A stretch of DNA of 64,000 bases from Candidatus Omnitrophota bacterium (lineage in GTDB: Bacteria; Omnitrophota; Gorgyraeia; JAGLLT01), in contig DAOVJY010000005.1 in assembly GCA_030632085.1 (NCBI GenBank), positions 37,476 through 101,475 of the forward strand, in the 5' to 3' direction. The number at the start of each line of letters is the position of its first letter. Position 1 is the stretch's first letter. The notes under the pieces are model-generated. The model ran no database searches, was not told the origin of the DNA, and saw nothing but the letters and a program-made list of their open reading frames with translations. The translations under genes were made by a program, and so were the position numbers. This document shows positions 37,110-60,458 of this stretch, piece by piece.

Positions 37110-37138
37110 TTGACAAAGTGCCACCAACCTTATATAAT
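37110..37138 (+). promoter_or_regulatory. Consensus sigma70-type promoter upstream of tRNA-Ser
   Basis: TTGACA (37110-37115), 17-nt spacer, TATAAT (37133-37138). Confidence 0.55.
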
Positions 37139-37170
37139 AAAACTCCACTTAACTTGATTAATAACATTTG

Positions 37171-37294
37171 AGATCTCACACCCGCCCTTGGCAGGTTCGA
37201 GATCCAATTTGCTTGTTGAAATTACACGTAAAAGATCTCTCGCCCGTCTTTGGCGAGTTCGAGATCCAATTTGCTTGTTGAAATTGTACAAATT
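37171..37294 (+). repeat. Tandem ~60-nt leader repeat (2 units) immediately 5' of tRNA-Ser(UGA)
   Basis: Two units of AGATCTC-N17-GTTCGAGATCCAATTTGCTTGTTGAAATT; the same arrangement precedes the second tRNA-Ser at 56511-56607. Confidence 0.5.
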
Positions 37295-37382
37295 GGAGGA
37301 GTGGCTGAGCGGTTGAAAGCGGCGGTCTTGAAAACCGTTGTGCCGAAAGGTACCGTGGGTTCAAATCCTACCTCCTCCGCCA
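37295..37382 (+). tRNA. tRNA-Ser (anticodon UGA)
   Basis: Cloverleaf by eye: acceptor GGAGGAG/CTCCTCC, 3-bp D-stem, anticodon loop CTTGAAA, long variable arm, T-loop TTCAAAT, ends GCCA. Confidence 0.85.
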
Positions 37383-39053: not shown

Positions 39054-39122
39054 TTTAACCCCCCTTAATGACTACATGATTTACGAAAATCTTTGATTTT
39101 CTTAAATCGTTTGTAGGAATTA

Positions 39123-40512: not shown

Positions 40513-40527
40513 GAGGAGGGGCCAACC

Positions 40528-42582: not shown

Positions 42583-42583
42583 C

Positions 42584-45118: not shown

Positions 45119-45252
45119 CCTGAAGGGAAAAAGGGGGAAATGGGAACAGGCCTAATTAATATTGCTAAAATAATTGACAGGAATTTTAGAAAACAGTAGC
45201 CTTGGTAAAAAAAGTAATTATTGTGTCCCCGGATTCTGCAACGAACCTTTAA

Positions 45253-46518
45253 ATGGTGCGGTTTAATATGACAAAAAAGTTGGTGCAAAGACAATTTACT
45301 GTTGTTGACCTTTTTGCGGGAGCAGGAGGATTGCTTGAGGGATTCAGGAGGAAAGGGTTCAATATAATTTCTTCTGTCGAAATGAATTCCCATGCCTGCG
45401 ATACGCTCAAGACCAGACATACTTATTGGGATTATAAGGTAAAGAAAAAGCAAAGCGCATATTGGGATTATGTGCAGAAAAAAATCACCAGAGAAGTATT
45501 CCTGAATGGTTTGCCGGAAAACGCAGTTATAAATGTAGAGATTTCTCCCAAAACTATAAATGAGATTTCTCGACGGATTAGAGAGCAAATGAAGGAGATG
45601 AATGTATCTTCTATTGATGTTTTTATCGGAGGTCCTCCCTGTCAGGCATATTCCCTTGTAGGGAGAGCGCGAGACCCCAAAAGCATGAAGGATGACCCAA
45701 GAAAACAGCTATATAAGCACTATGTTCAATTACTGAAAAAGTTCATGCCTGAAGTCTTTGTGTTCGAGAACGTGCCGGGAATACTTTCAGCTGATGGTGG
45801 CGCATTATTTGAAGAGGTAAAGAAATATTTTGGAAAAGCAGGATACGTTGTTGAGCACAAAAAGCTGATTGCTTCTGACTTTATGGTTCTTGAGAACAGA
45901 AAAAGGGTTATATTAATTGGCTGGAAAAAGGATCGTGATCTGAAATATCCAGAGTTTAAACCCAAAAAACATGATTATCTTACAGCAGAATTATTTAAGG
46001 ATTTACCTCCACTAAACCCCGGAGAGGGTAGTGATGTTTCAGAGTACGTTAATAACGTATCAGATTATCTGAAGAAATCAAAAATTAGACATATAGAGCC
46101 CGTGCTTACGCACCACGTGACGAGGCCAATTAATGATAATGACAGAGAGATTTATAAAGAAGCTCTTGTTTTGTGGGAAACAGAAGGGAAAAGGCTTAAT
46201 TACGCTGATCTGCCAGAGAAACTAAAAACACATAAAAACCAGGCTTCGTTTCTTGACAGATTCAAAGTAGTAGCCGCTAATGAAGCAGCATCACACACAG
46301 TTGTTGCACACATCGCAAAAGACGGACACTATTATATACATCCAGACATCAAACAGCTAAGGTCAATAAGCGTCCGAGAAGCAGCACGAATACAGTCTTT
46401 TCCAGATAACTACTTTTTTGAGGGTCCGAGAACTGCAAAACTTGCCCAGATAGGAAATGCAGTGCCACCGCTTATGGCAGAAGCTATTGCTGGTAAGATA
46501 AAGGAGATGTTGAAATGA
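45253..46518 (+). CDS. dcm: DNA (cytosine-5)-methyltransferase
   Basis: Motif I FAGAGG, motif IV GGPPCQAYS, motif VI ENV, motif X QIGNAVPP. Confidence 0.9.
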   Translation: MVRFNMTKKLVQRQFTVVDLFAGAGGLLEGFRRKGFNIISSVEMNSHACDTLKTRHTYWDYKVKKKQSAYWDYVQKKITREVFLNGLPENAVINVEISPKTINEISRRIREQMKEMNVSSIDVFIGGPPCQAYSLVGRARDPKSMKDDPRKQLYKHYVQLLKKFMPEVFVFENVPGILSADGGALFEEVKKYFGKAGYVVEHKKLIASDFMVLENRKRVILIGWKKDRDLKYPEFKPKKHDYLTAELFKDLPPLNPGEGSDVSEYVNNVSDYLKKSKIRHIEPVLTHHVTRPINDNDREIYKEALVLWETEGKRLNYADLPEKLKTHKNQASFLDRFKVVAANEAASHTVVAHIAKDGHYYIHPDIKQLRSISVREAARIQSFPDNYFFEGPRTAKLAQIGNAVPPLMAEAIAGKIKEMLK

Positions 46519-48629
46519 AGGGAAATAAATTTCGGACACGTGCCAGACTTATTCAACAATTAGGTCTTCAGTTAATCAAGAATGAGGGTATTGCGCTTTT
46601 GGAATTAGTTAAAAATTCTTATGATGCAGATGCTTCATTTTGTACAGTAGAAATGAATAAGGTTAATATTCCTCAAAAGGGTTCTATTGTTATTACAGAT
46701 GATGGAGAGGGGATGGATGACGATATTTTACGCTCTGCCTGGCTTGAGATTGGGACAAGTCACAAAGAAGAATTAGCCTCTAATCCGGAAACCAAACGTA
46801 CAGACAAATTCAAGAGATTACGTTTAGGAGAAAAGGGAATTGGGAGACTTGGAGTTCATAGATTAGGGAAGTTTATAAAAATTATTACTAAAAGGGGCGA
46901 ATATGAATATGTTCTCGAAATTGATTGGGACAAATTTGAGCAAAAAAAATATATAGAAGATGTTGAGATTGTTATAAAAAGGCGTACTCCTGAAATCTTT
47001 GAGAAAAAAGAATCAGGGACAAAGATCATTATTACTAAATTACGAATTGCTTGGACACGAAAAAGAGTGCGTGAGTGTTGTAGGGCAATCACTTCTTTAA
47101 ATTCCCCTTTTCAGGACAAAACATCATTCAAGGCAACTCTTAATATTGATAATAAAGATTGGATAAAGGGATTGCTTGATTTTAATAATATTAAAAAATA
47201 TAAACTTTTTGAGTTTTCAATATGCATGGAAAAAAATGAGATAACAGAATTCAATTATAAATTTATTCCGTGGAGTACAATGCCTAAGTTAAAAGTGAGG
47301 CATATTACCAAGGATAACAAAGAAATAAAGTCTGTGCTGAGAATGGTATATAAAGATAAGGAAACTAGAGAATATCAAGATATAGATTTGTCAAAGCATA
47401 AAATTGGTCCAGTTCAATTTAAAGGTGTGATCTTTGATAGAGATGCGCGTGTTTTAGAATTGGGAGTTCAAGATAAAAGCGGTTTAAAGAAATATTTAGA
47501 TGCAAATGGGGGTATTAGGGTTTTTAGAGACAATATGCGCGTACTGGATTATGGTGAGCCAGGGAATGATTGGCTTGACTTGGGCGGAAGACGTGTTAAT
47601 GTTCCAACAAAAAGAATAAGTAATAACATTATAATTGGGGGAGTTTTTCTCAATCGTGCTAAAAGTAGTGACCTTAAAGAAAAAGCTAACAGAGAAGGGT
47701 TCCTTGAAGATGATGCTTATGATGAACTTGTTAAAGCAGTCCTCTATGCAATAGATAAGCTTGAAACATTCAGAAAGACAGATAAAGATTTATTAAGAAA
47801 ATATTATGGCCCTCAAAAAAATATTGAGCCAGTAATCACATCAATTGCAGAGCTAAAAGATATTGTTGAAAAAAATGTTAAAGAGAAAAATGTCCAGAAT
47901 ACGATCAATGTATACCTTGACCGTATAGAGCAGGATTATGAACGAATTACTGAAAGCTTAATTAAAAGTGCCGGAGCTGGATTAAATCTTATCGTTGTGA
48001 TACATCAGATAGAGAAAATAATTAAAGATATTAAAGCTGCACTTAAAAGTAAGGCGGTTAATAAAAGTATTTTGGGAAGAGTTGAAGATCTTGCTTCTCT
48101 TGTCGAAGGATATAGTATTCTCATAAAAAATTCTGAAAAAAAAGAGCGCAACTTAAAAGGTATAATAAATCAGTCATTATTTAATACAAAATTTCGCTTT
48201 GAAGCGCATGGCATAAATGTTAGGAAAGAATATGAGTCAAAAAGAAAGGGATTTGATGCTATTTGTTCGGAAGGACACGTTTTGAATGCCCTGATGAATC
48301 TTTTTGATAATTCTATATGGTGGCTGGGATATTCAAAAACTAAAAATCCAGAAATTTATATCGATGTTTCTGATGCAGTGCCTGGGGGCTATGTAAGCAT
48401 TATTATTGCAGATAATGGCCCGGGTTTCTCAATGCCGGTAGAAGAGCTTACGAAACCATTTGTGAGTAATAAGCCGGGAGGTATGGGAATAGGACTTCAC
48501 CTTACAAATGAAATCATGAAGTCTCTAAAAGGAAGATTGGTTTTTGATGTGGAGGAGTATTTTGATATACCGTCTAAATATAAAAATGGTGCAGTAATCG
48601 CTCTGGCATTTAAGAAAGAGGAGAAATGA
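46515..48629 (+). CDS. Dual Bergerat-fold ATPase: N-terminal MutL/MORC-type GHKL domain and C-terminal histidine-kinase-type HATPase_c domain
   Basis: N-terminal ELVKNSYDADA, DDGEGM, GEKGIGRLG; C-terminal NALMNLFDNS, IADNGPGF, GGMGIGLHL. ATGA start-stop overlap with dcm. Confidence 0.6.
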   Translation: MKGNKFRTRARLIQQLGLQLIKNEGIALLELVKNSYDADASFCTVEMNKVNIPQKGSIVITDDGEGMDDDILRSAWLEIGTSHKEELASNPETKRTDKFKRLRLGEKGIGRLGVHRLGKFIKIITKRGEYEYVLEIDWDKFEQKKYIEDVEIVIKRRTPEIFEKKESGTKIIITKLRIAWTRKRVRECCRAITSLNSPFQDKTSFKATLNIDNKDWIKGLLDFNNIKKYKLFEFSICMEKNEITEFNYKFIPWSTMPKLKVRHITKDNKEIKSVLRMVYKDKETREYQDIDLSKHKIGPVQFKGVIFDRDARVLELGVQDKSGLKKYLDANGGIRVFRDNMRVLDYGEPGNDWLDLGGRRVNVPTKRISNNIIIGGVFLNRAKSSDLKEKANREGFLEDDAYDELVKAVLYAIDKLETFRKTDKDLLRKYYGPQKNIEPVITSIAELKDIVEKNVKEKNVQNTINVYLDRIEQDYERITESLIKSAGAGLNLIVVIHQIEKIIKDIKAALKSKAVNKSILGRVEDLASLVEGYSILIKNSEKKERNLKGIINQSLFNTKFRFEAHGINVRKEYESKRKGFDAICSEGHVLNALMNLFDNSIWWLGYSKTKNPEIYIDVSDAVPGGYVSIIIADNGPGFSMPVEELTKPFVSNKPGGMGIGLHLTNEIMKSLKGRLVFDVEEYFDIPSKYKNGAVIALAFKKEEK

Positions 48630-49918
48630 TGCAGTTATCTAAAAATGGGAAAGTTGTGATTGTCGATAATGTTTTTACAGAAGCTAAACCTTTACTTGAT
48701 GTTTTAAATATGAACCAAATCCCCTATTTATATTTTGATGGTAAGGTTGATTCTTTACCTGAAACTCCTTGCAAAGGGATTAGATTTGTTTTTCTTGATA
48801 TAGCTTTGGAAGGAATGGATGGCGCAGATACAAAAACAAAAGCTTCAGCAATCGTAGGGATATTAGAAAAAATTATTTCGAAGGATAATGGTCCTTATGC
48901 GATTATTTTCTGGACAAAACATCCCGAAGTTATTGAAAGAACTCTTAAAAACTGTCAAATAAGGGGAATAAAGCCTGTAATTTCACTTGATCTAGATAAA
49001 TCAGAATGTAAAGAAGGTGAGACGTACTCTCTTAAGGCGATTTTAGAAAAATTAAAAACAAAGGCAGAAAAATTGGGTCCATATAGTTTATATATAATGT
49101 GGGAAAATATAGCTGCTGATTCAGGGACTGAATTTATTAACAGTTTTGCTAACATCTTTGAATTTGATGATAACTGGAGTGAAAACACAAGGCATCTTTT
49201 TTATCGTCTATATAAGGCTTATACTGAAAAAAATGAGGTTTCAGATGATAAAGACAAGATATTGTGCGTTCTGCAACTCATTAATCGAAGCTTTAAGGAT
49301 TTGCTAGATAATAATACTGTTAACTGTAGAGAAAAATTAAATTTATTTGAATTCCCATCGACTCCTACTGACGAAGAAGAAAAGAGGACTTTTTCCCAGA
49401 AAATCAATGAAATAATTTCCGATGAAATAATCGCTAAAATAAATAATAGTCTTTTTATTATTGATAATCCTGATTTCTCGCAATTATCCACAGTTGTTTT
49501 TAAATATGCTGACGAAGAATTGAAAAATATTTTTTTGGATAAATGTTTTGAAAAGATTTCAGAAGTAGCTAAAGCATCTGCCCAACTTTGTCGTCTTGTG
49601 ATAACACCTCAATGTGATATATGTCAAGATAAAGCCATATTGCATAGAGTCCTGTATGGAATTATTTTCAACGAAGATGATGCCACTAAATGTAGAAAAG
49701 GGCCGTTATTTCCTTTTGGTCCCTTTTATTTCCATGATAGTTCCAAGTCGATAGTTTTTCACTTGCAATCAATAACTACTTGTAAGAAAGATGAATTGTG
49801 TTCTAAAGAGGTGTTATTTGGACTACGAAAAGATTTATTTTTTGATATACAGGCCAATTCTGCAAATCATGTTAACCGACATGGTAATTTTGCAATAAAA
49901 AAGCAATTTAAAATATAA
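48626..49918 (+). CDS. Uncharacterised protein with receiver (CheY)-like N-terminal domain and unknown Cys-rich C-terminal domain
   Basis: VVIVDN...RFVFLDIALEG...IIFWTKHPE resembles REC beta1/beta3/beta4 elements (inference); ATGA overlap with upstream ATPase gene. Confidence 0.35.
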   Translation: MMQLSKNGKVVIVDNVFTEAKPLLDVLNMNQIPYLYFDGKVDSLPETPCKGIRFVFLDIALEGMDGADTKTKASAIVGILEKIISKDNGPYAIIFWTKHPEVIERTLKNCQIRGIKPVISLDLDKSECKEGETYSLKAILEKLKTKAEKLGPYSLYIMWENIAADSGTEFINSFANIFEFDDNWSENTRHLFYRLYKAYTEKNEVSDDKDKILCVLQLINRSFKDLLDNNTVNCREKLNLFEFPSTPTDEEEKRTFSQKINEIISDEIIAKINNSLFIIDNPDFSQLSTVVFKYADEELKNIFLDKCFEKISEVAKASAQLCRLVITPQCDICQDKAILHRVLYGIIFNEDDATKCRKGPLFPFGPFYFHDSSKSIVFHLQSITTCKKDELCSKEVLFGLRKDLFFDIQANSANHVNRHGNFAIKKQFKI

Positions 49919-49919
49919 C

Positions 49920-50093
49920 GTGGTTATTGTGCATGTATTCAACTTTGAAAATAGTGTCAGAAATAAATTATTTTTATGGTTTAAGAAAAATGCACGTTCA
50001 TTTCCATGGCGAACTATTAAAGACCCCTATCGTTTGATGGTTGCCGAGTTCATAAAAAAAGGGGTCAGAGTCATTTTTCATTCTGGTAGATAA
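49920..50093 (+). pseudogene. N-terminal fragment of a MutY/Nth-family (HhH-GPD) DNA glycosylase
   Basis: Translation ...LFLWFKKNARSFPWRTIKDPYRLMVAEFI then degenerates and stops; matches N-terminal signature of MutY/Mig-type glycosylases. Not in ORF track. Confidence 0.35.
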
Positions 50094-50495
50094 ATGTTGT
50101 ATCGCCAGATTTTCGCATGTTCCCAGATTTATTGGGATGTGTCCCTATTAAAATGGAGATAGGGGGCGATTCTATTTTAAAATAGTATGTGTTTTGATAA
50201 AAATTAATTTAAAAGAAGTGTAGAATCAGAGGGGACACAATACTAATTTTAGTAATAAAACAGAAGGCAAATAATAAATAGGTATCGTGTCACCAGATTT
50301 TTAGAAAATACATAATTGTTAGGAAGAATTTCCGCAAAACAACTTTGTCGATAAAATATTTTTCCAAAAAGCCAAGTATTTATTCTTTATATTAAAACGA
50401 CTTATCAAGCAAAAGCTAGCTTCAAATTCACATAATGTCTGATTATAGGATCCTGAGGTTCTTATTTATATTTTGTTTCCCTTTATCTAACTCCG

Positions 50496-52355
50496 TTGTA
50501 TAATAAAAAGAAAAATGGAGGAAAAATGTATATAAAACGAATCGTTATAAAGAATTACCGAAATTTAAAAGATATAGACCTTTCCTTTGGCGCAGGGTTA
50601 ACTTGTATTGTAGGTGAAAACAATTCTGGAAAAAGTAATTTTTTACATGCAATACGGTTGGCCTTAGACATGAATCTGCCGTATTATGTTAGACAGTTAA
50701 CAGAAGATGATTTCGCCAAAGAAGTAGACTTCAGCGTGCCACAACAGATTGTGGTAGGAGTACAATTTACGGATTTTTTTTCAGGTGCAGATGACGATAA
50801 GGTAAAGGAGCACGCTCTAGCGCAAGAGTGGGGTTTGGACGGGGAAACAGCACAAGTATGTTATCGGTTTAGACCTAAAGGTTCAGTGCGTAGGAATATA
50901 GCTTCTGGTGAGCGTGAACCAAAAAATTTAACCATAGAGGATTATGATTCAGAACTAGTAGCTGGGCCGATAGTTTGTGAAGACGGAGGCACAAAAGATT
51001 TGTCAGAGGTTTGTTGGGACGATGATTTTTCAACAGCTGTAAAATTTAATAGGCTATCAACGTATCGAGTAGCATTTTTACAACCTATTCGAGATGTTGA
51101 AGATGATCTGCGCCGACAAGCACGCTCCCCATTGTATAAGCTGATAAAAGTATCGGATATGTCTGATGAAAAGAAAAAAGAACTAATAAAAAAGATAGAT
51201 GATGTAAATAAAGAGATATCATCTGAAGCGGAAATCCAACAAATTGCTCAAGACATAGATGATTCCTTCAGTGCAGCGGTAGGCTCTATATTTAAAATGA
51301 ATACAAAGATAGGCATGATGTCGCCAACCTTTAGAGACATCACCCGCTCTTTAAAAATTTTACTGTCCGGACAGGGGCTGGAAGAGGCGAATATTTCTAG
51401 AAATGGGTTAGGGTTAAATAATATTTTATACATGAGTATGTTGTTGGAATATTACAAGAAACAAGGGGAGCAAGAAGATACCGCTGGCGAATTATTGTTG
51501 ATTGAAGAACCAGAGGCGCATCTACATCCCCAACTGCAAAGAGTCTTGCTGGGAAGATTAGAAAACAAAGAATGTCAAATAATCACGACCAGTCATAGTA
51601 CGCATATTACTTCACGTGTGGATTTAAATGAAGTGATAGTTTTTACGCGAAATACGGAGTATGAGATATCAGCTAAAAGATTGAGTGATAACAATTGGTC
51701 GTCTGATAACGATAAGGATGATTTGGAGAGATATATAGATGCTACAAAATCAGTTTTGTTATTTGCTAAAAAGGTTATTCTGGTAGAGGGAATGGCAGAA
51801 GTTTTCCTGATTCCTTTTTTAGTGAAAAAGATCAAAGAAATAGATCTAGAAGAGCATGGCATATCAATAGTTCCCATTCACGGCGTTCATTTTTCTTCAT
51901 ACTTAAAACTTTTTGGAAATGAAGCTATAAAAAAGAAATGTGCAGTTATAACCGACGGGGATCTAAGGCCTAGCGATTCATTTAATTCGGAAGAGGGGGA
52001 TTTCCCAAGAGTAGATTCTTTGAGAGATTTTGAAAATGACTTTGTAAGGATATTTCATTGTGGAACAACATTTGAAATAGAAACCGCATCTCCCAGCAAT
52101 TTAAAGATGTTCGCAAGTTCAGCTAATGAGCTAGGAGCGCCGCGAGTGGCGAAAGATCTAATGGAAAGCTATAAAAAGAAAAGTGAATTATCTGCGAAAG
52201 AAAAACTAGAAATGAGTAAAAAAGTTTTGAACACCGCAAAAAGGTTTGGTAAGGCACGATATGCACAGATATCATCACGGTATTCACAGTATGCCGAAGA
52301 ATTACCGACATATTTAGATAATGCAATTGATTGGTTGATAGATGAAGCTGACTAG
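50496..52355 (+). CDS. gajA: OLD-family ATP-dependent nuclease (GajA-like: ABC-type ATPase + Toprim)
   Basis: Walker A GENNSGKSN, Walker B LLLIEEPEAHLHP, Toprim residues VILVEGMAE and ITDGD; probable true start ATG 50526 with GGAGG RBS. Confidence 0.8.
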   Translation: MYNKKKNGGKMYIKRIVIKNYRNLKDIDLSFGAGLTCIVGENNSGKSNFLHAIRLALDMNLPYYVRQLTEDDFAKEVDFSVPQQIVVGVQFTDFFSGADDDKVKEHALAQEWGLDGETAQVCYRFRPKGSVRRNIASGEREPKNLTIEDYDSELVAGPIVCEDGGTKDLSEVCWDDDFSTAVKFNRLSTYRVAFLQPIRDVEDDLRRQARSPLYKLIKVSDMSDEKKKELIKKIDDVNKEISSEAEIQQIAQDIDDSFSAAVGSIFKMNTKIGMMSPTFRDITRSLKILLSGQGLEEANISRNGLGLNNILYMSMLLEYYKKQGEQEDTAGELLLIEEPEAHLHPQLQRVLLGRLENKECQIITTSHSTHITSRVDLNEVIVFTRNTEYEISAKRLSDNNWSSDNDKDDLERYIDATKSVLLFAKKVILVEGMAEVFLIPFLVKKIKEIDLEEHGISIVPIHGVHFSSYLKLFGNEAIKKKCAVITDGDLRPSDSFNSEEGDFPRVDSLRDFENDFVRIFHCGTTFEIETASPSNLKMFASSANELGAPRVAKDLMESYKKKSELSAKEKLEMSKKVLNTAKRFGKARYAQISSRYSQYAEELPTYLDNAIDWLIDEAD

Positions 52356-54114
52356 AGAACAGGTAAACGCTGTAAAATGTAGTAGCAATGTTGCTTTGGA
52401 ATCTTGTCCAGGAAGCGGAAAGACAAGAACCATTGTGGCGAAGCTTTTAGAATGCCTGGATGACGTCAGACAAACTACAAGAATGATTAGTTGTATAACA
52501 TATTTGAACTCAGCTGTAAATGAAATTAATCACAGATTAAGTAGTTGTATAACTCATGAAGAGCTAGAAGATTATTATGAGATAGGAACGATACATTCTT
52601 TTTGCCTGAGGAATATCTTTCGGCTAAATTATTGGAGGATAGATAAGTTTTCAGGAGGGTTTGCGATTATAACGCCAGACGATGATGAGTATAAAGAATT
52701 TGTTAGCAATATTATTGAGAATAATTCTCTCGACCCAAAATCATTCGATGACTTCAGCTTTTTGGTGAGAGAAGGCAAGATTTCGGGTAGGATGTCAGAT
52801 AAAGCCGCAAAAGAGTATTGGGAATATCTAGATGATAATAATTTAGTGGACTTTAACGATATAATATATTATTCAGCATGTCTAATACGGGAGAATGAAT
52901 ATATTATCGCTGGTCTCTCAGCAAAATATGCATGGATTTTAGTAGATGAATTTCAAGATACATCTATCCATCAAAAAGAGATCCTCAAAGCTATTTCAGA
53001 TTATAAAAGGACAAAGTTTTTTATTGTAGGGGATCCCTGTCAATCGATTATGGGTTTTGCTGGAGGAAGTTCGCTCTTAATGAAGCAGTTTTCAAAGGAG
53101 ATAGTTGCAAAGAATGATTTTTCATTAACGGGTAATTTCCGGAGTTCCAGTAGAATAATTAATTGTGCTGAAGAATTGCTTCCTCGTGATCCAAAAATGG
53201 ACGCAGTTGGAGAAAATAAATATTATAATCATAGCCCATTATGGATAAGAGCATGTGATTCCTTTTCTGGAATAGATGAATATTTTCTTCCAGCAATTAA
53301 GGAACATAATATTTCTTTAGGAGAATGCGCAATTTTAGCTCCAAATTTTTATATTTTCTTAAAGTTGGCTCCTAAAATGAGAGAAGCTGGCATATCTATA
53401 CTTGGTCCAGGATCACGCCCATACCGTAGGTCAAATCACATAATAGCTCCTTTAATTGAAGAGGTTTGCTTATTTATAGAAACACAGGACATAAAACAGA
53501 TAAAGATTATCCGATATAAAATTTTGGATGTAATTACTATATGCGAAGATAAAGTGGACAAAGATTTCTTTACGTTAAAAGGTGATATTGCTATCTTAAA
53601 AATATTGAACGCAGCAAAGAACTTAAAGAACAAAAATGTAAATGCTAAGCAATTTATTGTATCTTTTTCAGAAGAAATTGCTTCGTTGTTGCATGAGAGA
53701 GGATTCATAAAAAAAGAGGCCATAAGTCATATAGCGACCTCTGGGAAAGGATTAGTTTCTGATATAGAGGAACATTGTTCTGGCGATCCGTATAGTGGAG
53801 ACAATTTAACTATAGAAGATTTAAGCTTATTTAGTATCAATTCTGAGAGCATTAAATTATTAACCTTGCATAGGGCCAAGGGGAGGGAGTTTGATGCTGT
53901 AGCTGTAATATGCGTTCATGATGGATTGATTCCTTATGGCGCCCCTTATGCTGGTAGCGATGAGGAAAATGAATCAAGGCGCTTATTTTATGTTGGCATG
54001 ACAAGGGCTCGTAAATTGCTAATGTTTTTTACAGAGGTGAGGAACCTTAGGAGTCCTTCTCGTTTTCTGACAGAATTATTCCCAGCTGGTCCACACATAA
54101 TAGCTGACGTCTAA
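52342..54114 (+). CDS. gajB: UvrD/PcrA-like SF1 helicase (GajB-like)
   Basis: Walker A GSGKT, DExQD-type LVDEFQDTS, motif III GDPCQSI, motif VI YVGMTRARK; 14-nt overlap with the OLD nuclease gene. Confidence 0.8.
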   Translation: MKLTREQVNAVKCSSNVALESCPGSGKTRTIVAKLLECLDDVRQTTRMISCITYLNSAVNEINHRLSSCITHEELEDYYEIGTIHSFCLRNIFRLNYWRIDKFSGGFAIITPDDDEYKEFVSNIIENNSLDPKSFDDFSFLVREGKISGRMSDKAAKEYWEYLDDNNLVDFNDIIYYSACLIRENEYIIAGLSAKYAWILVDEFQDTSIHQKEILKAISDYKRTKFFIVGDPCQSIMGFAGGSSLLMKQFSKEIVAKNDFSLTGNFRSSSRIINCAEELLPRDPKMDAVGENKYYNHSPLWIRACDSFSGIDEYFLPAIKEHNISLGECAILAPNFYIFLKLAPKMREAGISILGPGSRPYRRSNHIIAPLIEEVCLFIETQDIKQIKIIRYKILDVITICEDKVDKDFFTLKGDIAILKILNAAKNLKNKNVNAKQFIVSFSEEIASLLHERGFIKKEAISHIATSGKGLVSDIEEHCSGDPYSGDNLTIEDLSLFSINSESIKLLTLHRAKGREFDAVAVICVHDGLIPYGAPYAGSDEENESRRLFYVGMTRARKLLMFFTEVRNLRSPSRFLTELFPAGPHIIADV

Positions 54115-54262
54115 TTATACCCACACAATAAAAACTTGTATATAGAGAGATAATGAGGAAAAAATCTATTTTCCTTGATTTTCTATTCGTATTTATTATA
54201 TATAACCGTCTCTTTTGTTCTCAAAGTGATGATACTAAGAATTCCAGAAGCACAATATCTAA

Positions 54263-54466
54263 CTAACCAACAACATTTTTTTTAACATAAATTTCAAAGA
54301 TACCGTTTCTTAGCCTTGTCCCATGTATTTTTGACTTCGGGATCCAGATTTTCATGCCGTTATCTACCAATATAGCTTTATCAGTCTCATGTAAGATGCG
54401 GACTTGAATCCAGATGTATTTTTCGTCAGGGTATAATAGTCTATAAATGTTGAATGGCCGGGGCAT
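54263..54466 (-). CDS. Small hypothetical protein
   Basis: 67-aa ORF directly downstream of the HTH ORF on the same strand; no recognisable motif. Confidence 0.2.
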   Translation of the reverse strand: MPRPFNIYRLLYPDEKYIWIQVRILHETDKAILVDNGMKIWIPKSKIHGTRLRNGIFEIYVKKNVVG

Positions 54467-54470
54467 AGGG

Positions 54471-54668
54471 TTATCTCCTTTTAAATTGACAGGCTTTTTT
54501 GGCAGTATTCTTGCCTATTTTTAAAGCTTTGGCTATTTGCTTGTAAGTCATTCCCAGTAAATGCAATTCACTTGCTTTTTGGGCTAATTTTTGGTATAAA
54601 TAGATTCGTTGGGCGGGTTGAATCTTGATATGAGCCGATATTTCAGCAATAGTTCGAATTGGTTGCAA
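54471..54668 (-). CDS. Small HTH protein, possibly a transposase N-terminal fragment
   Basis: HTH-like LGMTYKQIAKALKIGKNTAKK; only 65 aa, at the distal edge of the island. Confidence 0.25.
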   Translation of the reverse strand: MQPIRTIAEISAHIKIQPAQRIYLYQKLAQKASELHLLGMTYKQIAKALKIGKNTAKKACQFKRR

Positions 54669-54696
54669 CCGCGTCCGCCATTATAGCAAAGAGCCC

Positions 54697-54724
54697 GTAG
54701 TGTAGAGCGTAGGGCAAAGATAGA
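54697..54724. repeat. Copy of dispersed TAGAGCG-core repeat
   Basis: GTAGTGTAGAGCGTAGGGCAAAGATAG followed by CCAAAAAAAGGATTTTAAGGGAAAAGAT; about 70-75% identical to 56738-56830. Confidence 0.45.
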
Positions 54725-54855
54725 TTGCGCAGGGACGAGAACCCAAAAAAAGGATTTTAAGGGAAAAGATTGCTCCCTCTCCTCAGGGGTTTAGGCTTCT
54801 ACTTTAAGGTAATTAAATAGCGCGTTCCTCGATTTTTTGCAAAAATAGGAGGTGC

Positions 54856-55308
54856 TTGATGAAGCAGTTTTTTAAATGTGCGATAGGCGCAAGTGTGGTT
54901 TTATTTATGTTAATTTCCGGGGTATGTGCCCAAGATCAAAACCCGATTGCGATTTTCTACGGCGGCTTAGCTGATATTATTCAAGAAAACATGAATTCAC
55001 CGCAGCAATGTGTTGCTGAAGCTGAGAGTTTTATTGATGTTAATATCGGCCCTCTCCAGAGAGCTATGCAGCGGGGCGCGCAGATGTCTCGATCCGACAG
55101 CCACAAGCAAATGGATGAAAGTCAATTCCAAGCCTCTCTGGAACAAATGGGCAAGTTGATGTCCCAAGACGGCGGAATACAAGCCATGAATAGGTATGTG
55201 GACGCCATTACTATTTTTGGAGACAAGTACCCTGAGTACGCAGAACAAATTATGATTAAACTAAACAGCCATAGCCAAGAACAATTTCAGGGATTTAAGG
55301 ATTATTAG
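54856..55308 (+). CDS. Secreted hypothetical protein
   Basis: Signal peptide MMKQFFKCAIGASVVLFMLISGVCA; Gln/Met-rich; no family recognised. Confidence 0.4.
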   Translation: MMKQFFKCAIGASVVLFMLISGVCAQDQNPIAIFYGGLADIIQENMNSPQQCVAEAESFIDVNIGPLQRAMQRGAQMSRSDSHKQMDESQFQASLEQMGKLMSQDGGIQAMNRYVDAITIFGDKYPEYAEQIMIKLNSHSQEQFQGFKDY

Positions 55309-55360
55309 CCAGGGTAAATATAGGGATACAATGCTTAATCATCCAACAACGCTTTCCTAA

Positions 55361-56338
55361 ATGAGACCTGAAGAAAGGATTGATAGTATGTACAGACCGG
55401 AAATAAAAGCATTAGATTGCACCATCAGGGACGGAGGCCTCATTAATAATCACAACTTTGACCATAAATTCGTCAAAGAAGTTTATAAAGCTATTTCCGC
55501 TTCAGGGGTAGATTATATTGAATTAGGCTACAAGAATTCTAAAGAGCTTTTTTCGTCCAATGAATACGGTTATTGGAAGTTCTGTGAAGATGACGAAATT
55601 AAAAAGATTAAAGAAGGAGTTGAGTCAGATACAAAAGTAGCAGTTATGGTAGATGTTGGCCGAGTTAAATTGGATGACGTAAAACCGGCCTCCGAAAGCC
55701 CGGTTGATATGATCAGAACAGCTACTTATGTTAAGGATATTGATAAAGCCATATTTATGGCTAATCATTTTTATGAAAAAGGGTACGAGACTACACTTAA
55801 TATTATGGCTATTTCTCGTGATAGCGGTCCCGAGCTGACAGATGCCCTGGAACAGATAGAACGAGAAAGTAATGTAATAGCTGTGTATATAGTTGATAGT
55901 TTTGGTGCCTTGTATCAGGAAACAACCGAAGAGTTAGTGAAAAGATATAAAAAAATCCTTAAGAACAAGGAAGTCGGCTTTCATGGGCACAACAACCAGC
56001 AACTTGGTTTTGGTAATACCATCGAAGCCATCATTCATGGAGCGAACTATCTTGATGCCACAGTTTACGGCATAGGGCGCGCTGCCGGCAATTGTCCGCT
56101 AGAACTATTGGTTGGTTTTCTTAAAAATCCCAAATTTGATATACGGCCTATTTTAGACTTAATTGCAAAAGAGTTTATTCCTTTAAGAGAAAAGCTGGAA
56201 TGGGGATATATTATTCCTTATGCTATTTCAGGTATGATGGGCGAACACCCAAGGGCCGCTATGGCTCTTCGAAAAAGCGACAAGAAAGAAAATTACCGCG
56301 AGTTTTATGAAAGCCTGACTAATACAGGGCTAGACTAA
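55361..56338 (+). CDS. HMGL-like/DRE-TIM aldolase-family protein
   Basis: N-terminal LDCTIRDGG resembles the TxRDG motif of pyruvate-carboxyltransferase/HMGL-like TIM barrels; likely start MYRPE at 55388. Confidence 0.45.
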   Translation: MRPEERIDSMYRPEIKALDCTIRDGGLINNHNFDHKFVKEVYKAISASGVDYIELGYKNSKELFSSNEYGYWKFCEDDEIKKIKEGVESDTKVAVMVDVGRVKLDDVKPASESPVDMIRTATYVKDIDKAIFMANHFYEKGYETTLNIMAISRDSGPELTDALEQIERESNVIAVYIVDSFGALYQETTEELVKRYKKILKNKEVGFHGHNNQQLGFGNTIEAIIHGANYLDATVYGIGRAAGNCPLELLVGFLKNPKFDIRPILDLIAKEFIPLREKLEWGYIIPYAISGMMGEHPRAAMALRKSDKKENYREFYESLTNTGLD

Positions 56339-56340
56339 CC

Positions 56341-56532
56341 ATGGATATAAATCAGTTCAAGCAACTTCCTATCATGGGAATATTGCGCGGAATTGATGAA
56401 GAATCTATTACTCCCCCTACCGAAAGCATTATTTCTTCAGGCCTCAAGACGGTTGAAATCACAATGAACACTACTGGCGCTGCATCTTTAATTAAAAAGA
56501 TGGACGAGTTCGAGATCCAATTTGCTTGTTAA
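56341..56532 (+). pseudogene. Truncated KDPG/KHG aldolase (Eda-like) N-terminal fragment
   Basis: LPIMGILRG...TVEITMNT matches Eda N-terminus; ORF ends after 63 aa where the tRNA leader repeat begins. Confidence 0.45.
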
Positions 56533-56607
56533 AATTGTACGTAAAATATCTCTCACCTACTTTTGATAGGTTCGAGATCCAATTTGTTTGTTAAAATTGT
56601 ACAAATT
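56511..56607 (+). repeat. Second copy of the tandem tRNA leader repeat
   Basis: GTTCGAGATCCAATTTGCTTGTTAAAATTGTAC occurs twice, matching 37171-37294. Confidence 0.5.
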
Positions 56608-56695
56608 GGAGAGATGGCAGAGCGGTTGAATGCGGCGCATTCGAAATGCGTTGTGCCGAAAGGTACCGGGGGTTCGAATCCTCCTCTCTCCGCCA
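56608..56695 (+). tRNA. tRNA-Ser (anticodon CGA)
   Basis: Acceptor GGAGAGA/TCTCTCC, anticodon loop TTCGAAA, long variable arm, T-loop TTCGAAT, ends GCCA. Confidence 0.85.
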
Positions 56696-56737
56696 CCGTA
56701 CCACGTAGGGTACGGTGCGCGCATTGTAACAAAGAAC

Positions 56738-56763
56738 GTACAGTATAGAGCGTAAGATAAAAG
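56738..56763. repeat. Copy of dispersed TAGAGCG-core repeat downstream of tRNA-Ser(CGA)
   Basis: GTACAGTATAGAGCGTAAGATAAAAG ... CCAAAAAAAGGGCTTTAGGGGAAAAGAT, homologous to 54697-54790. Confidence 0.45.
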
Positions 56764-57286
56764 TAGAATGTTTTGGGATGAGAATCCAAAAAAAGGGCTT
56801 TAGGGGAAAAGATAATTTTCCCTTATTGGCGAAGTTTACTTTTTCAGCGGGAGGAAAGAAAGTATTAAAAGGAGGCAATTAAAATGAAAAGATATGGTTG
56901 GATGATTGGATGAACTGTAATTTTCAGTGCAGGCATGATGATGGCAATAGAATATGTTCCTGAGAATGTTTGGCAACAGGTTGTACAAACGTTGAATTTT
57001 ACAAATACATTGTTGCTTGTTTCAGTAGTGTTGCAAGCTGGGATTTTAGCGAACTTAAAAAACTAAAACTATATATCTGTAGGAGAAAAAAACTTTTTAG
57101 GGCTTGGAGAAAACATGAATGTTTATTTTGAAACTGATGAGGGAAAAATTTTAATAAGAGATTACATGCAGGCATTTCCTATAATCCAAGTAAAGGGCGT
57201 AACGTTTATTATATCGATAGTTGCATCAATTTTTGTTTCAATAGGTATTGTTTTATTTTTTCACGTTTTGTAGATAAATAGTTTTT

Positions 57287-57320
57287 GTGTCCACACAACA
57301 CCAAAACAACGGCAAACAAA
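57287..57320. repeat. Left copy of ~33-bp direct repeat flanking the HTH/ImmA module
   Basis: GTGTCCACACAACACCAAAACAACGGCAAACAA versus right copy GTGCCCACACAACCAAAACAACGGCAAACAA. Confidence 0.5.
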
Positions 57321-57444
57321 ACATCTGACCGGTCTATTTGCTTGACATTATTTGTTACATTGTGTATGGTTATTATATACGTTGTAACAATTATACAACA
57401 TATGGGTATTTTCTAAAAACAAAAAGGGTAGGGGGTGAGCTATT

Positions 57445-57819
57445 ATGGCGAAGGAATCTTTTGGAGATTTGCTAAGGAAACTAAGACTAAAAAAGGGATA
57501 TGGGTTAAGGTCGTTTGCAAAGAAAATCAACTGGCTTCCATCTAATCTCAGCCATTTGGAAACTGGAAGAATTAATCCTCCGAGAGACAAAAAAATGCTG
57601 TATCATATTGCAAAAGCACTTGATCTTAAAAAGGGTTCTAAAGAGCAGAATCGCTTCTTTGACCTTGCGGTGGATGATGTGCCAGATCGACTGCCTGCTG
57701 ACATAACAGAGTATGTGAATGAACACTCTTTAGCTCCTGTTATGCTAAGAACAGTCGCTAATAAGAAGCTTACAAAATTTCAGATTCAAAGATTGATTAA
57801 AGATATAAAAAATATGTAG
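57445..57819 (+). CDS. XRE-family HTH regulator (ImmR-like)
   Basis: HTH LRSFAKKINWLPSNLSHLETGR; preceded by TTGACA-17-TATGGT promoter overlapping a GTTACA...TGTAAC palindrome. Confidence 0.7.
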   Translation: MAKESFGDLLRKLRLKKGYGLRSFAKKINWLPSNLSHLETGRINPPRDKKMLYHIAKALDLKKGSKEQNRFFDLAVDDVPDRLPADITEYVNEHSLAPVMLRTVANKKLTKFQIQRLIKDIKNM

Positions 57820-57820
57820 A

Positions 57821-58423
57821 ATGAAAAAATCTAAAATTCAAATCTATGATGTCCTTACCTTAGAAGAAATCGCAAAGGCTTTTCTAGATAAATATGATAA
57901 CTCAGACAGTCTTGAAGTTGATATAGAATATATCATTGAAAACAAGTTAGAATGGAAAATCATAGGTGTTTCTTTCTTAAGGGAAAAGTATTGTATTGAA
58001 GCATATTTTAATAAAAATAAAGAACTCTATGTTGATTCATTCCTTATGGATTCTAGGGAAAGGAGATATCGTTTTACTTTAGCTGAAGAAGTGGCCCATC
58101 ATATAATTCATCGTGATATATATGCACAGTGTGCTAATTTGGAGGAGCATCTCGAAATATATGGTAAAATAACAGCAAATGAATATCACAGCATGGAAAG
58201 AAATGCTAAGTATTTAGCTTCAGCAATAATTATGCCTAGTATTTCATTTGAAAAACAAGCAATAAAAATTTGTAAAAAAATTAATAAGAAAGAATATGAA
58301 ACTAATCAGGAAGTATTGTATAAAATAGCATTAACTTTATCAAATGATTTTAATGTAAGTGATGAGGCTGCAAGAATAAGATTTATAAAATTAGGATTGC
58401 AGCAAAAACTAATAACCCTATAA
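57821..58423 (+). CDS. ImmA/IrrE-family zinc metallopeptidase
   Basis: HExxH motif (EEVAHHIIH) in a ~200-aa protein directly downstream of an XRE regulator. Confidence 0.65.
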   Translation: MKKSKIQIYDVLTLEEIAKAFLDKYDNSDSLEVDIEYIIENKLEWKIIGVSFLREKYCIEAYFNKNKELYVDSFLMDSRERRYRFTLAEEVAHHIIHRDIYAQCANLEEHLEIYGKITANEYHSMERNAKYLASAIIMPSISFEKQAIKICKKINKKEYETNQEVLYKIALTLSNDFNVSDEAARIRFIKLGLQQKLITL

Positions 58424-58445
58424 ATTATAATTTTGTGCCCAAATT

Positions 58446-58479
58446 GTGCCCACACAACCAAAACAACGGCAAACAAGCC
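58446..58479. repeat. Right copy of direct repeat flanking the HTH/ImmA module
   Basis: See 57287-57320. Confidence 0.5.
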
Positions 58480-58589
58480 TATTTTTGTAAATTGTAATCA
58501 CAAGCGCGGCTGCGTAATCTGTTCGAGGCGAAGCCTCGAACAAAATACATAAAAAAATAAAAAGCTTACAGCTATCAGCTTTCAGCAAA

Positions 58590-58629
58590 GATAGCGTTTA
58601 GCATAGAGCGCGTAGCGGATAGGAAAAGC
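58590..58629. repeat. Copy of dispersed repeat core with flanking CAGCTATCAGCTTTCAG
   Basis: GATAGCGTTTAGCATAGAGCGCGTAGCGGATAGGAAAAGCAAAAAAACAAG matches the reverse complement of 17900-17955 inside the giant gene. Confidence 0.5.
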
Positions 58630-58719
58630 AAAAAAACAAGAAATAAGAAACAAGTCACAAATCGGAAAACAAAAGAACATATCCGAAACGCGGCGGTTCA
58701 GATACAGGCCAAAGAAGAA

Positions 58720-59364
58720 ATGAAAAAAACGGTCGCTGTCCCTATTAAAACTAAAAAAATGAAAGTTTTATTTCTCACAATCCTAATTGGCCTGGTACCT
58801 TTGATTGTTTTGGCTGAGCAGCCCGATATTACAACTCAGGTTGGCCCTGAACGTTCAGAAGAAACTGAAAAGCCTGAGGGCTCAGACTTAAGCATGGAGC
58901 AAATAATGCAAGAATTAGAACGAGTAAAAGAACAATTAAAAAATGTTGGAAAGACACATGACCAATTAGAAATTGACCGCCGGAAATTAGGACGACTTAT
59001 CATAGATAACAATGAGTTTTTCACTCTCAGGGTAATGGAGAATATCGCCACAGCCTGTAAATTGTTTCGCGCGGATCAAGAACTGCAAACTTTTCCCAGA
59101 AGATTTAGAGATTTAGAAGATTATGTTTCCGAGGACATAATCAATGCTACCAATTCCTCCAAAGCTATCCACGGGTATTATTATCAATATAATTTTATAA
59201 ATAAAGATAGATTTAGGCTAAAGGCCATTCCCGCTACTAAAGGTAAAACGGGAGAGAGGACATTTGTTTTTGATGACGCGGGCGGCATTATCAACGAGGA
59301 GACAGGCAGACCCGTAAGTCTAAAGAAAGAGAAAGACAAACAAAAATCAGGAGGAACAAAATGA
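58720..59364 (+). CDS. Secreted hypothetical protein
   Basis: Signal peptide/TM (VLFLTILIGLVPLIVLA); no family recognised. Confidence 0.4.
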   Translation: MKKTVAVPIKTKKMKVLFLTILIGLVPLIVLAEQPDITTQVGPERSEETEKPEGSDLSMEQIMQELERVKEQLKNVGKTHDQLEIDRRKLGRLIIDNNEFFTLRVMENIATACKLFRADQELQTFPRRFRDLEDYVSEDIINATNSSKAIHGYYYQYNFINKDRFRLKAIPATKGKTGERTFVFDDAGGIINEETGRPVSLKKEKDKQKSGGTK

Positions 59365-60065
59365 AAAATATTGTAATTTTATTAATGCTTGTTTGTTTTT
59401 TTGCTGTAACTGTTTCTGCCGGTGAGTATTCAAAAAATTACACCTTTGTCCATAATTTAATTAGTTGCTTGGATAGGTTAGAATTAGCTGCCCAGCGTAG
59501 CATTGAGGATGTAGAATATGAATCGATATCACCAAATCTTTATAAGCAGATATGTTACTTAAGAGATGCAAAGATATTTATGAAGGCAGGGTTAAAGAAC
59601 AGAAAAAAGGCGATTAAGGCCACTGCTATGGGGATGTATGTGGATATTTCTGAAATAGAAGGCGCTTGTAAGAATTTAGTAAATGTTTTAAGTGAACCGA
59701 CGCCGGAGAATATGCCGGAAATATCCGGATATTCTTCACAGATAGGGGCGGCGTGGAATAAAATTTTCCAAACCAGTAGTCTCGCTCTTTGGGTTATTGC
59801 CAAGCCCGCGAAATCTAAAAATCCTAAAGGAAAAATTCGCTTTATTATCTCCAAAAAAGAACGACAAGAGCTGCTTAGATATCTTAATGAAAGATTTGGA
59901 AAAAAGTTTAAGGAATATGACAAATTATTGAGTCAAAAAAATAAAGGCGTAATTGATGAATTTAAACTTACAATTCCTGTTTGGTCGGCATTACATTTGC
60001 GCTCGCTCTTAACTCAAGAAACATATGAACAAGCCGCGGAAAAGAGCAGATACGAAACCCCTTGA
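59361..60065 (+). CDS. Secreted hypothetical protein
   Basis: Signal peptide (IVILLMLVCFFAVTVSA); 4-nt overlap with upstream gene. Confidence 0.4.
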   Translation: MKNIVILLMLVCFFAVTVSAGEYSKNYTFVHNLISCLDRLELAAQRSIEDVEYESISPNLYKQICYLRDAKIFMKAGLKNRKKAIKATAMGMYVDISEIEGACKNLVNVLSEPTPENMPEISGYSSQIGAAWNKIFQTSSLALWVIAKPAKSKNPKGKIRFIISKKERQELLRYLNERFGKKFKEYDKLLSQKNKGVIDEFKLTIPVWSALHLRSLLTQETYEQAAEKSRYETP

Positions 60066-60169
60066 CACTGCTGAAGGCGGGCTTCGCTTGACAAAGTTTA
60101 TTGTATATGCTATAACTATAACATATACTAAAAATATAGTGGTGAGCTAACTCATCAACAAAAAATTAA

Positions 60170-60391
60170 ATGGAGAATGGGATGTTGATTTCTTCACAGG
60201 AGATTGTTGAAAAACATAATATTTCGTATCAGACGCTAAATTACTATACAGGCCTTGGCTTTTTGGTAGTGAGAAAGAGAAGGGGTAACGGAAGGCTGTA
60301 TAATCAGGGAGAGGTTGAAAAAAATTTAAAGAGAATTGCAGAATTAAAAGATCAAGGCTATCCCTTGAGACTTATCTGTAAGATGCTGTAA
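60170..60391 (+). CDS. Small MerR-type HTH DNA-binding protein
   Basis: HNISYQTLNYYTGLGFL matches the MerR-family HTH pattern. Confidence 0.55.
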   Translation: MENGMLISSQEIVEKHNISYQTLNYYTGLGFLVVRKRRGNGRLYNQGEVEKNLKRIAELKDQGYPLRLICKML

Positions 60392-60458
60392 AGGGCGGCT
60401 GTTACAAAAAAAGCAATGCGTAAAATATAACATTTTTGCGGGGAGCAATAATTGAGAG

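Follow-up and report, generated by a model that had tools for sequence, protein, structure and literature searches.

The DNA analyzed here, a 64-kb stretch of a Candidatus Omnitrophota contig that we call the window, contains two tRNA genes, both of which specify serine tRNAs, one with a UGA and one with a CGA anticodon (ARAGORN, Rfam). Immediately 5' of each gene lie direct repeats spaced at 62 nt. This had been noted in a preliminary description of the same DNA, although the two units which that description assigned to both loci are complete only at tRNA-Ser(UGA), while tRNA-Ser(CGA) is preceded by one full unit and one that is truncated at its 5' end (1.5 units). A 33-mer taken from the unit, GTTCGAGATCCAATTTGCTTGTTGAAATTGTAC, occurs four times at no more than two mismatches, always on the plus strand (37195, 37257, 56508, and 56570), where the chance expectation from 100 shuffles is 0. 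Similarity between the two loci is confined to 37193-37382 and 56506-56695, that is, about 190 nt comprising the leader and the tRNA up to its CCA end. The tRNA-Ser(CGA) gene stands downstream of a gene for an HMGL-like aldolase and of a remnant of eda (KDPG aldolase), and the 7-bp hairpin that had been described directly 3' of it is indeed present in the sequence; the stem of this hairpin is also found 3' of the tRNA in the related contig L002, with a loop of 14 nt. The features of both loci are collected in Table 1.

Related loci (designated by L numbers) were gathered through homologs of the flanking proteins and through an exact 22-base pattern of the unit core, which was searched in 185,579 species representative genomes, and 27 related loci were scanned with R1, a covariance model (CM) of the 62-nt unit. 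The pattern was found in two of these, both Candidatus Omnitrophota metagenome-assembled contigs (L001 and L002). CM R1 found no further convincing copy in the window or in the 27 loci, and phage, plasmid, and viral-contig collections held nothing similar to the unit. Two further candidates were set aside: a single metagenome hit to the pattern (L003), which has no tRNA and is a chance match, and a weak CM hit at 39490-39549 on the minus strand (19.7 bits, E=0.044), which has no convincing hairpin or core and was treated as chance. The preliminary description had advised looking for copies elsewhere in the genome; none came to light in the window, the 27 related loci, or the public scans, and the other tRNA genes of L002 (Ser-GCU, Ser-GGA, and Arg-ACG) carry no unit. 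As far as the data go, the array is specific to one Omnitrophota sublineage.

An alignment of nine complete units, from the window and three relatives, shows the unit to be 62 nt long and to consist of a hairpin with a variable apex followed by an A/U-rich tail of 33 nt. The tail, GUUCGAGAUCCAAUUUGYUUGUURAAAUUGUAC (GTTCGAGATCCAATTTGYTTGTTRAAATTGTAC as DNA), is invariant or nearly so, and its first 11 nt double as the 3' arm of the hairpin. The 5-bp base of the hairpin (AUCUC/GAGAU) and a 2x2 internal loop (UC/UC) are likewise invariant or nearly so, whereas the apical 7-bp stem with its UUU loop is free in sequence and comes in three types (CCCGTC..GACGAG, CCGGCC..GGCAGG, and CCTAC..GATAGG). 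Folding predictions give the hairpin for all units, at -12 to -18 kcal/mol and z of about -2 to -3; 92.5% of the alignment cells are paired, compared with 21-46% when the partner is slid, and at 3 of the 12 pairs both partners have changed. The unit could also form a second, weak A/U hairpin (CAAUUU-N8-AAAUUG), which hardly varies between units. Counting G-U against C-A pairs in the hairpin as a test of strand gave balanced, uninformative numbers. The register of the units relative to the tRNA +1 position is constant, and units at the edges of arrays are degenerate or interrupted (L001_a, window 1a, and L002_a). In L002, a 110-nt insert (164-273) with two near-identical G+C-rich hairpins (CCGCAGTAAACTGCGG), which may be a small element resembling miniature inverted-repeat transposable elements, interrupts the first unit.

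Between the window and L001, the tRNA-proximal units differ at only 1 of the 33 core positions, whereas the HMGL-like gene next to them is only 60.6% identical at its four-fold degenerate sites, and the tRNA itself, unlike the core, differs in its D arm, anticodon stem, and variable arm. Judged by these comparisons, the 33-nt core is apparently constrained, being far better conserved than neutral sites. The unit matches no described family: Rfam returned nothing for the units up to E=10 and, at gathering score, only the tRNA hits in the window. It is not a CRISPR array, as the 29-nt intervals between cores are mutually homologous (they are the hairpin arms) and no cas genes lie nearby. Derivation of the unit from a tRNA, for which a T-loop-like stretch (GGTTCGAGATCC) and an acceptor-like ATCTCTC could be cited, was rejected since the similarity is not significant against shuffles; the best local match between leader and tRNA, GGTTCGA-ATCC, covers 11 of 12 positions including a gap, a score reached by 6-26 of 300 shuffles (2-9%).

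Table 1. Features of the two tRNA-Ser loci of the 64-kb window.
Feature	Position	Strand	Evidence or remark
Consensus sigma-70 promoter TTGACA-17-TATAAT of the tRNA-Ser(UGA) unit, upstream of the repeats	37110..37138	+	12/12 match
Spacer apparently copied from the CGA locus; left edge of the putative ectopically copied block	37155..37170	+	TGATTAATAACATTTGA vs. L001 TGATTGATAGCATTTAA (including eda stop)
Repeat unit 1a, tRNA-distal; tail slightly degenerate (AAATTACAC)	37171..37232	+	
Repeat unit 1b, abuts tRNA +1	37233..37294	+	CM R1, 89 bits
tRNA-Ser(UGA), CGA-type variable arm (GTGCCGAAAGGTAC)	37295..37382	+	
HMGL-like aldolase gene, first of the HMGL-like/eda pair	55388..56338	+	PF00682, E=2.8e-26
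eda (KDPG aldolase) remnant, codons 1-54	56341..56502	+	PF01081; aligns to L001 eda codons 1-54
Putative deletion junction, CGAG microhomology of eda (GATGGCCGAGGT) and unit (TTTGACGAGTT)	56503..56509	.	Alignment with L001
Truncated repeat unit 2a, without 5' hairpin arm	56503..56545 (start approximate)	+	
Repeat unit 2b, abuts tRNA +1	56546..56607	+	CM R1, 90.5 bits
tRNA-Ser(CGA)	56608..56695	+	ARAGORN, Rfam tRNA
7-bp trailer hairpin CCGTACC-ACGTAG-GGTACGG, directly after the CCA end	56696..56715	+	

The 63-aa open reading frame (ORF) at 56341-56532, which had been taken for a stub of Eda, is a genuine N-terminus of that protein. It matches the KDPG/KHG aldolase family PF01081 at E=1.7e-6 and 28.1 bits (cutoff 27.8), with residues 4-54 aligned to profile positions 3-53 of 196 and thus well short of the full barrel of about 200 aa, and it is 84% identical to residues 1-56 of the intact 208-aa Eda of L001 (tblastn E=9e-26). 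The ORF is a pseudogene remnant, the frame of which runs nine codons into the truncated unit 2a and stops at 56530-56532. No further fragment of eda lies within the window. Intact copies, the search for which had been proposed beforehand, are present in L001, L002, and L020-L024, and the HMGL-like/eda pair is widely conserved across Omnitrophota. The same contigs speak against the earlier idea that the repeat begins inside eda because it arrived there and truncated the gene: in all of them, tRNA-Ser(CGA) directly follows the intact eda or the units that come after it. The tRNA is therefore native to the 3' side of eda in this clade and did not move into it.

What the window carries instead has the appearance of a deletion. 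It follows the eda of L001 through codon 54 (…AAGATGG) and then continues with sequence from the middle of a unit (…ACGAGTTCGAGATCC), and CGAG is present at the junction in both partners, eda (GATGGCCGAGGT) and the unit (TTTGACGAGTT). Measured against an ancestor with three units, the window lacks about 465 nt of eda together with the spacer and about 1.5 units, and the alignment indicates that a deletion of about 0.6 kb at the CGAG microhomology removed eda codons 55-208 along with these units. Across 54654-56599, stub and junction included, the sequence of the window recurs with 100% identity in a contig of another assembly (L019; Logan SRR13892601). In L026, the HMGL-like counterpart of which is 96% identical to that of the window, eda is uninterrupted through at least codon 103.

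A separate lesion of eda is found in L016 (1424-1594), where an in-frame internal deletion between TTAATTA direct repeats, located at about codons 50-52 and about codons 199-201, leaves a 56-aa ORF. The last codons (SYKT*) and the short native junction with the tRNA are kept, which rules out that the leader of L016 is the relic of a deleted array; this loss of eda is independent and occurred in a lineage without units. The left breakpoints of the two lesions lie no more than about 10 nt apart, which could be a coincidence or reflect a local hot spot. With the HMGL-like partner intact in both the window and L016, eda seems to have been lost repeatedly while the HMGL-like gene was kept.

Copy number of the unit varies among close relatives at both loci. 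At the CGA locus there are three units in L001, three in L002 (one of them interrupted), 1.5 in the window, and none in L020-L024 and L016; at the UGA locus there are none in L010, L011, L018, and L020, one in L009, and two in the window. Where units are lacking the loci are compact. In L020-L024 the HMGL-like gene is followed by an intact 207-aa eda, 3 nt, and tRNA-Ser(CGA), and the HMGL-like protein of these contigs falls in the same 90%-identity cluster as that of L016 and is 95.6% identical to that of the window. At the UGA locus, L010, L011, L018, and L020 have the promoter TTGACA-17-TATAAT, a leader of about 26 nt, and the tRNA. Where units are present they are interposed, as in L001 and L002, in which the intact eda is followed by a short spacer of about 8-13 nt, the three units, and the tRNA. 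L009 carries its single unit in a region (gyrA-serS, 4.9 kb) that is 96.5% identical to the window. No precursor of the unit was found in the unit-less leaders of L020 and L010, either by alignment against shuffles or with CM R1; an insert in the L020 leader (ATCTCGCCGTTTTATAAGGCGGGG...AATTTG) had been considered as a proto-unit and was dismissed, its alignment scores lying within the range of shuffles and R1 finding nothing.

The resemblance of the two leaders is best explained by copying from one to the other. Upstream of its first unit, the UGA leader of the window and of L009 reads TGATTAATAACATTTGA followed by GATCTC, and the sequence after eda in L001 reads TGATTGATAGCATTTAA followed by GATCTC; across window positions 37155-37177 (TGATTAATAACATTTGAGATCTC) and the corresponding stretch of L001 (TGATTGATAGCATTTAAGATCTC), 20 of 23 positions are identical. 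In other words, the 15-nt spacer of the UGA leader corresponds to what lies behind the eda stop codon at the CGA locus. The spacer is lacking in L010 and L020, and unit-less UGA leaders instead read …AAGTTGAT followed by GGCC. In addition, the unit of L009 has the same hairpin type as the CGA-proximal unit of the window, and the variable arm of tRNA-Ser(UGA) in the window is of the CGA type (GTGCCGAAAGGTAC), compared with GTACTGCAAGGTAC in unit-less relatives. The shared spacer, hairpin type, and variable arm therefore indicate that the UGA leader received a copied block that begins with the post-eda spacer and ends within the tRNA. The left edge of the block lies at a TGAT microhomology at the UGA locus and its right edge inside the tRNA. 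Where the locus is compact, the HMGL-like/eda operon is bracketed by the two tRNA genes, which are only about 1.8 kb apart. By these markers the direction of copying appears to be from the CGA locus to the UGA leader, with the CGA locus as the likely home of the array. Of the "duplicated or mobilized cassette" envisaged in the preliminary description, the duplication thus holds, in the sense that leader and tRNA sequence was copied between loci, and the mobilization does not, there being no element ends, target duplications, or dispersal.

Taken together, the following history can be proposed, and in this account of array origin, copying, and deletion we have high confidence. The ancestral compact locus would have comprised the promoter, tRNA-Ser(UGA), the HMGL-like gene, eda, 3 nt, and tRNA-Ser(CGA), with no units. 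In the sublineage of the window, the array would have arisen between the eda stop codon and tRNA-Ser(CGA), after which the post-eda spacer, one or more units, and part of the tRNA would have been transferred to the nearby UGA leader by ectopic recombination or gene conversion. The UGA array would then have grown from one unit to two, and in the genome of the window the deletion at CGAG would have fused eda codon 54 to the middle of a unit, giving the 63-aa stub. Divergence across the region is itself mosaic: gyrA-serS shares 96.5% identity with L009, but the HMGL-like gene of the window only 88.6% (65% at four-fold sites) with that of L026, which was recovered from the sample that also yielded L009. 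This points either to two populations or to recombinational exchange of the tRNA-flanked segment.

The units are most simply placed in RNA. The promoter before tRNA-Ser(UGA) is conserved in five relatives (L009, L010, L011, L018, and L020), and the UGA-locus units, being downstream of it, are therefore part of a transcribed 5' leader. At the CGA locus, a scan that required at least 9 of 12 hexamer matches and a -35/-10 spacing of 16-18 nt found no sigma-70-like promoter, whether in the units or in the 3' portion of eda. Since the tRNA moreover begins 3 nt after the eda stop codon in L020, co-transcription with the operon is the simplest arrangement, and tRNA-Ser(CGA) is probably transcribed together with the HMGL-like and eda genes. 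The units were also considered as promoters themselves and rejected in this role, as no sigma-70-like site lies within them at any locus and inspection by eye revealed no sigma-54, sigma-32, extracytoplasmic function, or extended -10 site. Scans for an intrinsic terminator or attenuator on the plus strand found none; a terminator-like call was made on the complementary strand only.

On balance, we lean toward the view that the array is a lineage-specific, tandem, structured spacer module of 62 nt, present in zero to three copies, which acts in processing or stabilization of the transcript, although in its precise molecular role, which we infer, our confidence is low. The units would be transcribed as part of the tRNA precursor, from the promoter at the UGA locus and by read-through from the HMGL-like/eda operon at the CGA locus, and would be removed when RNase P cuts at the tRNA +1 position. 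The hairpins and the single-stranded A/U-rich linker could serve as modules of processing and insulation, together offering an entry site for an endonuclease, and after cleavage a protective stem-loop would be left at the 3' end of the upstream mRNA. In the ancestral arrangement, nothing would shield this mRNA, the end of which would lie 3 nt beyond the stop codon. Units at the UGA locus would be passengers of the conversion event.

Several observations weigh against this interpretation. At the UGA locus there is no upstream mRNA to protect, and a role as a processing or stabilizing element does not by itself require an invariant sequence of 33 nt. The units can be dispensed with by the tRNA genes, as close relatives have no copies at both loci, and neutrality could be the reason. 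The covariation statistics are weak, with only 230 of 500 shuffles falling below the observed number of double-change pairs, and the nine units are not independent of one another, as three hairpin types are common to several genomes, which suggests conversion or exchange. Hairpin changes that look compensatory can be produced by template switching in quasi-palindromes without selection, and the core could owe its conservation to lateral exchange in the recent past or to concerted evolution instead of function.

A rival possibility is that the array is a functionless minisatellite that expands and contracts by slippage or unequal crossing-over, is homogenized by gene conversion, and acquires its hairpin variants by quasi-palindrome template switching. 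We regard this possibility as unlikely on balance and yet serious. It accommodates the zero to three copies among close relatives and their dispensability at both loci, the very narrow distribution of the exact 22-base core, the degenerate or interrupted edge units, and the hairpin types common to loci and genomes. It accounts less readily for a core in which 1 of 33 positions has changed against a difference of about 40% at neutral sites (unless the arrays were recently exchanged or homogenized), for an invariant hairpin base and internal loop beneath an apex that varies freely and yet stays paired, and for the constant register relative to the tRNA +1 position.

Another possibility, to which we give slightly less credence and which we consider doubtful, is that the 62-nt module is an undescribed cis-acting RNA motif of pre-tRNA-Ser leaders, with the invariant hairpin base, internal loop, and 33-nt tail recognized in a sequence-specific manner by a protein or RNA. 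Its main support is the conservation of the core, which exceeds that of the tRNA downstream and, by a wide margin, that of neutral sites. Candidates for the recognizing factor would be a processing or modification enzyme, a Nus-like complex, or a small RNA partner; the number of units would tune the expression of tRNA-Ser(CGA/UGA) or of the upstream operon, or, alternatively, released units would act as small RNAs.

Recognition might also take place on DNA, with the palindrome CAATTT-N8-AAATTG of the core as the operator of a regulator of the tRNA genes and the 62-bp phasing corresponding to about six helical turns. The palindromic arms are present in nearly all units, the core is invariant, the phasing is constant, and an extended dyad in the tRNA-proximal unit (CCAATTTG-N15-CAAATTGG) overlaps the tRNA +1 position. 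However, no candidate regulator is conserved beside the loci, the promoter at the UGA locus precedes the units, compensation in the hairpin apex points to a single-stranded (RNA) structure, and the same arms can equally form the weak RNA hairpin mentioned above (H2), and we consider such an operator array improbable.

Equally remote or slightly more so is antitermination of the kind mediated by Nus factors at rRNA (rrn) operons, in which the hairpin would be boxB, UGYUUGUURAAA a diverged boxA, and the eda-tRNA stretch would be protected from Rho. The architecture is suitable, in that a structurally conserved hairpin and, a few nucleotides on, an invariant linear sequence lie in an untranslated leader ahead of a stable RNA, and GTTTGTTAAAA fits the consensus GYTCTTTAANA, which is gamma-proteobacterial, at all but two positions (PMC5725501). 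BoxA sequences are known to differ from phylum to phylum and are not confined to rRNA operons (PMC7665894). On the other hand, matches at no more than two mismatches are at chance level in the window (266 found compared with 255 expected), and one of the mismatches lies at consensus position 4, a site in the C4T/T6C double mutation that abolished SuhB recruitment at the boxA of E. coli suhB (PMC5725501). Antiterminators are also normally single-copy, and the distance to be protected is tiny. Neither the window nor the fetched loci contain an rRNA operon.

Finally, that a mobile or duplicated tRNA-plus-leader cassette landed in eda and truncated it is very improbable: although about 190 nt of leader and tRNA are common to both loci, a large serine recombinase gene abuts tRNA-Ser(UGA), and variable DNA borders both tRNAs, every relative has tRNA-Ser(CGA) directly behind an intact eda, whether units are present or not, the remainder of eda is missing from the window and not displaced, there are no dispersed copies, the recombinase lies 3' of the other tRNA at a junction that unit-less relatives have too, and the edges of similarity have no terminal repeats or target-site duplications but microhomologies (TGAT at the UGA locus, CGAG at the eda junction).

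The DNA around the two genes is variable. Between tRNA-Ser(UGA) and the HMGL-like locus, the window has a region of about 17 kb (37368-54442) with the look of a defense island, comprising a large serine recombinase (37368-39053, minus strand), RadC, a type III restriction-modification pair (Mod, 40528-42582; Res, 42584-45118), a C5 methylase (DrmMII-like, E=1e-172), a HATPase-type protein resembling restriction endonucleases, a 430-aa unknown protein, and Gabija (GajA, 50496-52355, E=5e-206; GajB, 52342-54114, E=7e-170). In L011 and L018, only about 0.9 kb with an AbrB-type pair stands in its place. The last 15 nt of the recombinase ORF are the complement of the 3' end of tRNA-Ser(UGA) (window 37368-37483), and about 100 nt of the 3' end of the recombinase gene are kept at the tRNA junction in L010 (4817-4917), L011 (2034-2134), and L018 (1145-1245), with the rest lost. 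A similar ...ACCA..TCGAACC... sequence lies 3' of tRNA-Ser(CGA) in L020 (4169-4230). The 3' ends of tRNA-Ser genes in this clade appear to be recurrent attachment sites for serine-recombinase elements, which would make them landing sites through which defense systems are imported. In L020, moreover, a 36-nt 5' half of tRNA-Ser(UGA) comes first after the promoter, with about 120 nt of inserted sequence separating it from the complete tRNA (2028-2183), and the tRNA 3' end recurs as a copy (TCCTACCTCCTCCGCCATTTATT) about 180 nt farther downstream (2453-2478). These fragments, which flank the tRNA, resemble scars left by earlier integration or excision events.

Downstream of tRNA-Ser(CGA), window positions 56696-60458 encode an XRE-family helix-turn-helix protein (57445-57819), an ImmA/IrrE-type M78 peptidase (57821-58423), and two secreted proteins, and this segment may be another integrated element. 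The whole of 36962-60458 is absent from L012-L015, in which a membrane-protein gene is directly followed by an AAA_22 ATPase and secretin cluster. Between a small helix-turn-helix gene and the HMGL-like gene (54629-55360), the window has a gene for a predicted secreted protein of 150 aa (54856-55308) that is also present in L016 and L019 and is absent from L001. Elsewhere, a very large ORF of 2481 aa, in a region of raised G+C (0.42-0.46), occupies 14160-21605 on the minus strand.

If the core is recognized in a sequence-specific manner, it would represent a new leader motif for bacterial tRNA genes, in a phylum without genetics. It would also offer a natural series of 0, 1, 1.5, 2, and 3 copies in which the influence of 5' spacers on the maturation of a tRNA, and on how stable the upstream mRNA is, could be tested. 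Mainly, however, the locus is a worked example of how an apparent mobile tRNA cassette can be resolved into three ordinary processes at a compact, tRNA-flanked operon, namely gain and loss of tandem repeats, ectopic gene conversion between paralogous tRNA genes, and a microhomology deletion.

Among known systems, the closest functional analogy is to the REP-type intercistronic stem-loops, such as that of E. coli malE-malF, which stabilize the 3' ends of mRNAs, are often tandem, vary in copy number between strains, and are dispensable. The unit resembles them in forming stable tandem hairpins of variable copy number in a transcribed intergenic spacer. REPs, however, are present in hundreds of dispersed copies and are linked to RAYT transposases, whereas the unit is restricted to two neighboring loci and has a long, invariant tail outside the hairpin. 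The boxB-boxA of rrn leaders likewise offers a hairpin followed by a conserved linear element in an untranslated stable-RNA leader, but the unit is tandemly repeated, and its sequence match is not above chance. An external transcribed spacer of a tRNA can be functional, as shown by the small RNA sponge 3'ETS-leuZ (PMC8144298), and spacer RNA freed from the unit during tRNA maturation could similarly have a function of its own; 3'ETS-leuZ is, however, a 3' and single-copy spacer, and no target complementarity was identified for the unit. The nearest described class is that of the tRNA-linked repeats (TLRs) of E. coli, short repeats confined to tRNA and rRNA operons, present in one to several tandem copies and co-transcribed (PMC8144298), which are generated by local duplication or unequal recombination and some of which are processed into small RNAs (Egan and Landy, 1978; Rudd, 1999; as described in PMC8144298). 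By definition, TLRs are located downstream and terminate in 18-19 bp that are identical with the 3' end of the gene preceding them (PMC8144298), whereas the unit lies 5' of the tRNA and has no significant similarity to it. In common with TLRs, the unit lies within a tRNA operon, between the promoter and tRNA-Ser(UGA) at one locus and between eda and tRNA-Ser(CGA) at the other, and it is best filed among the tandem spacer repeats associated with tRNA operons.

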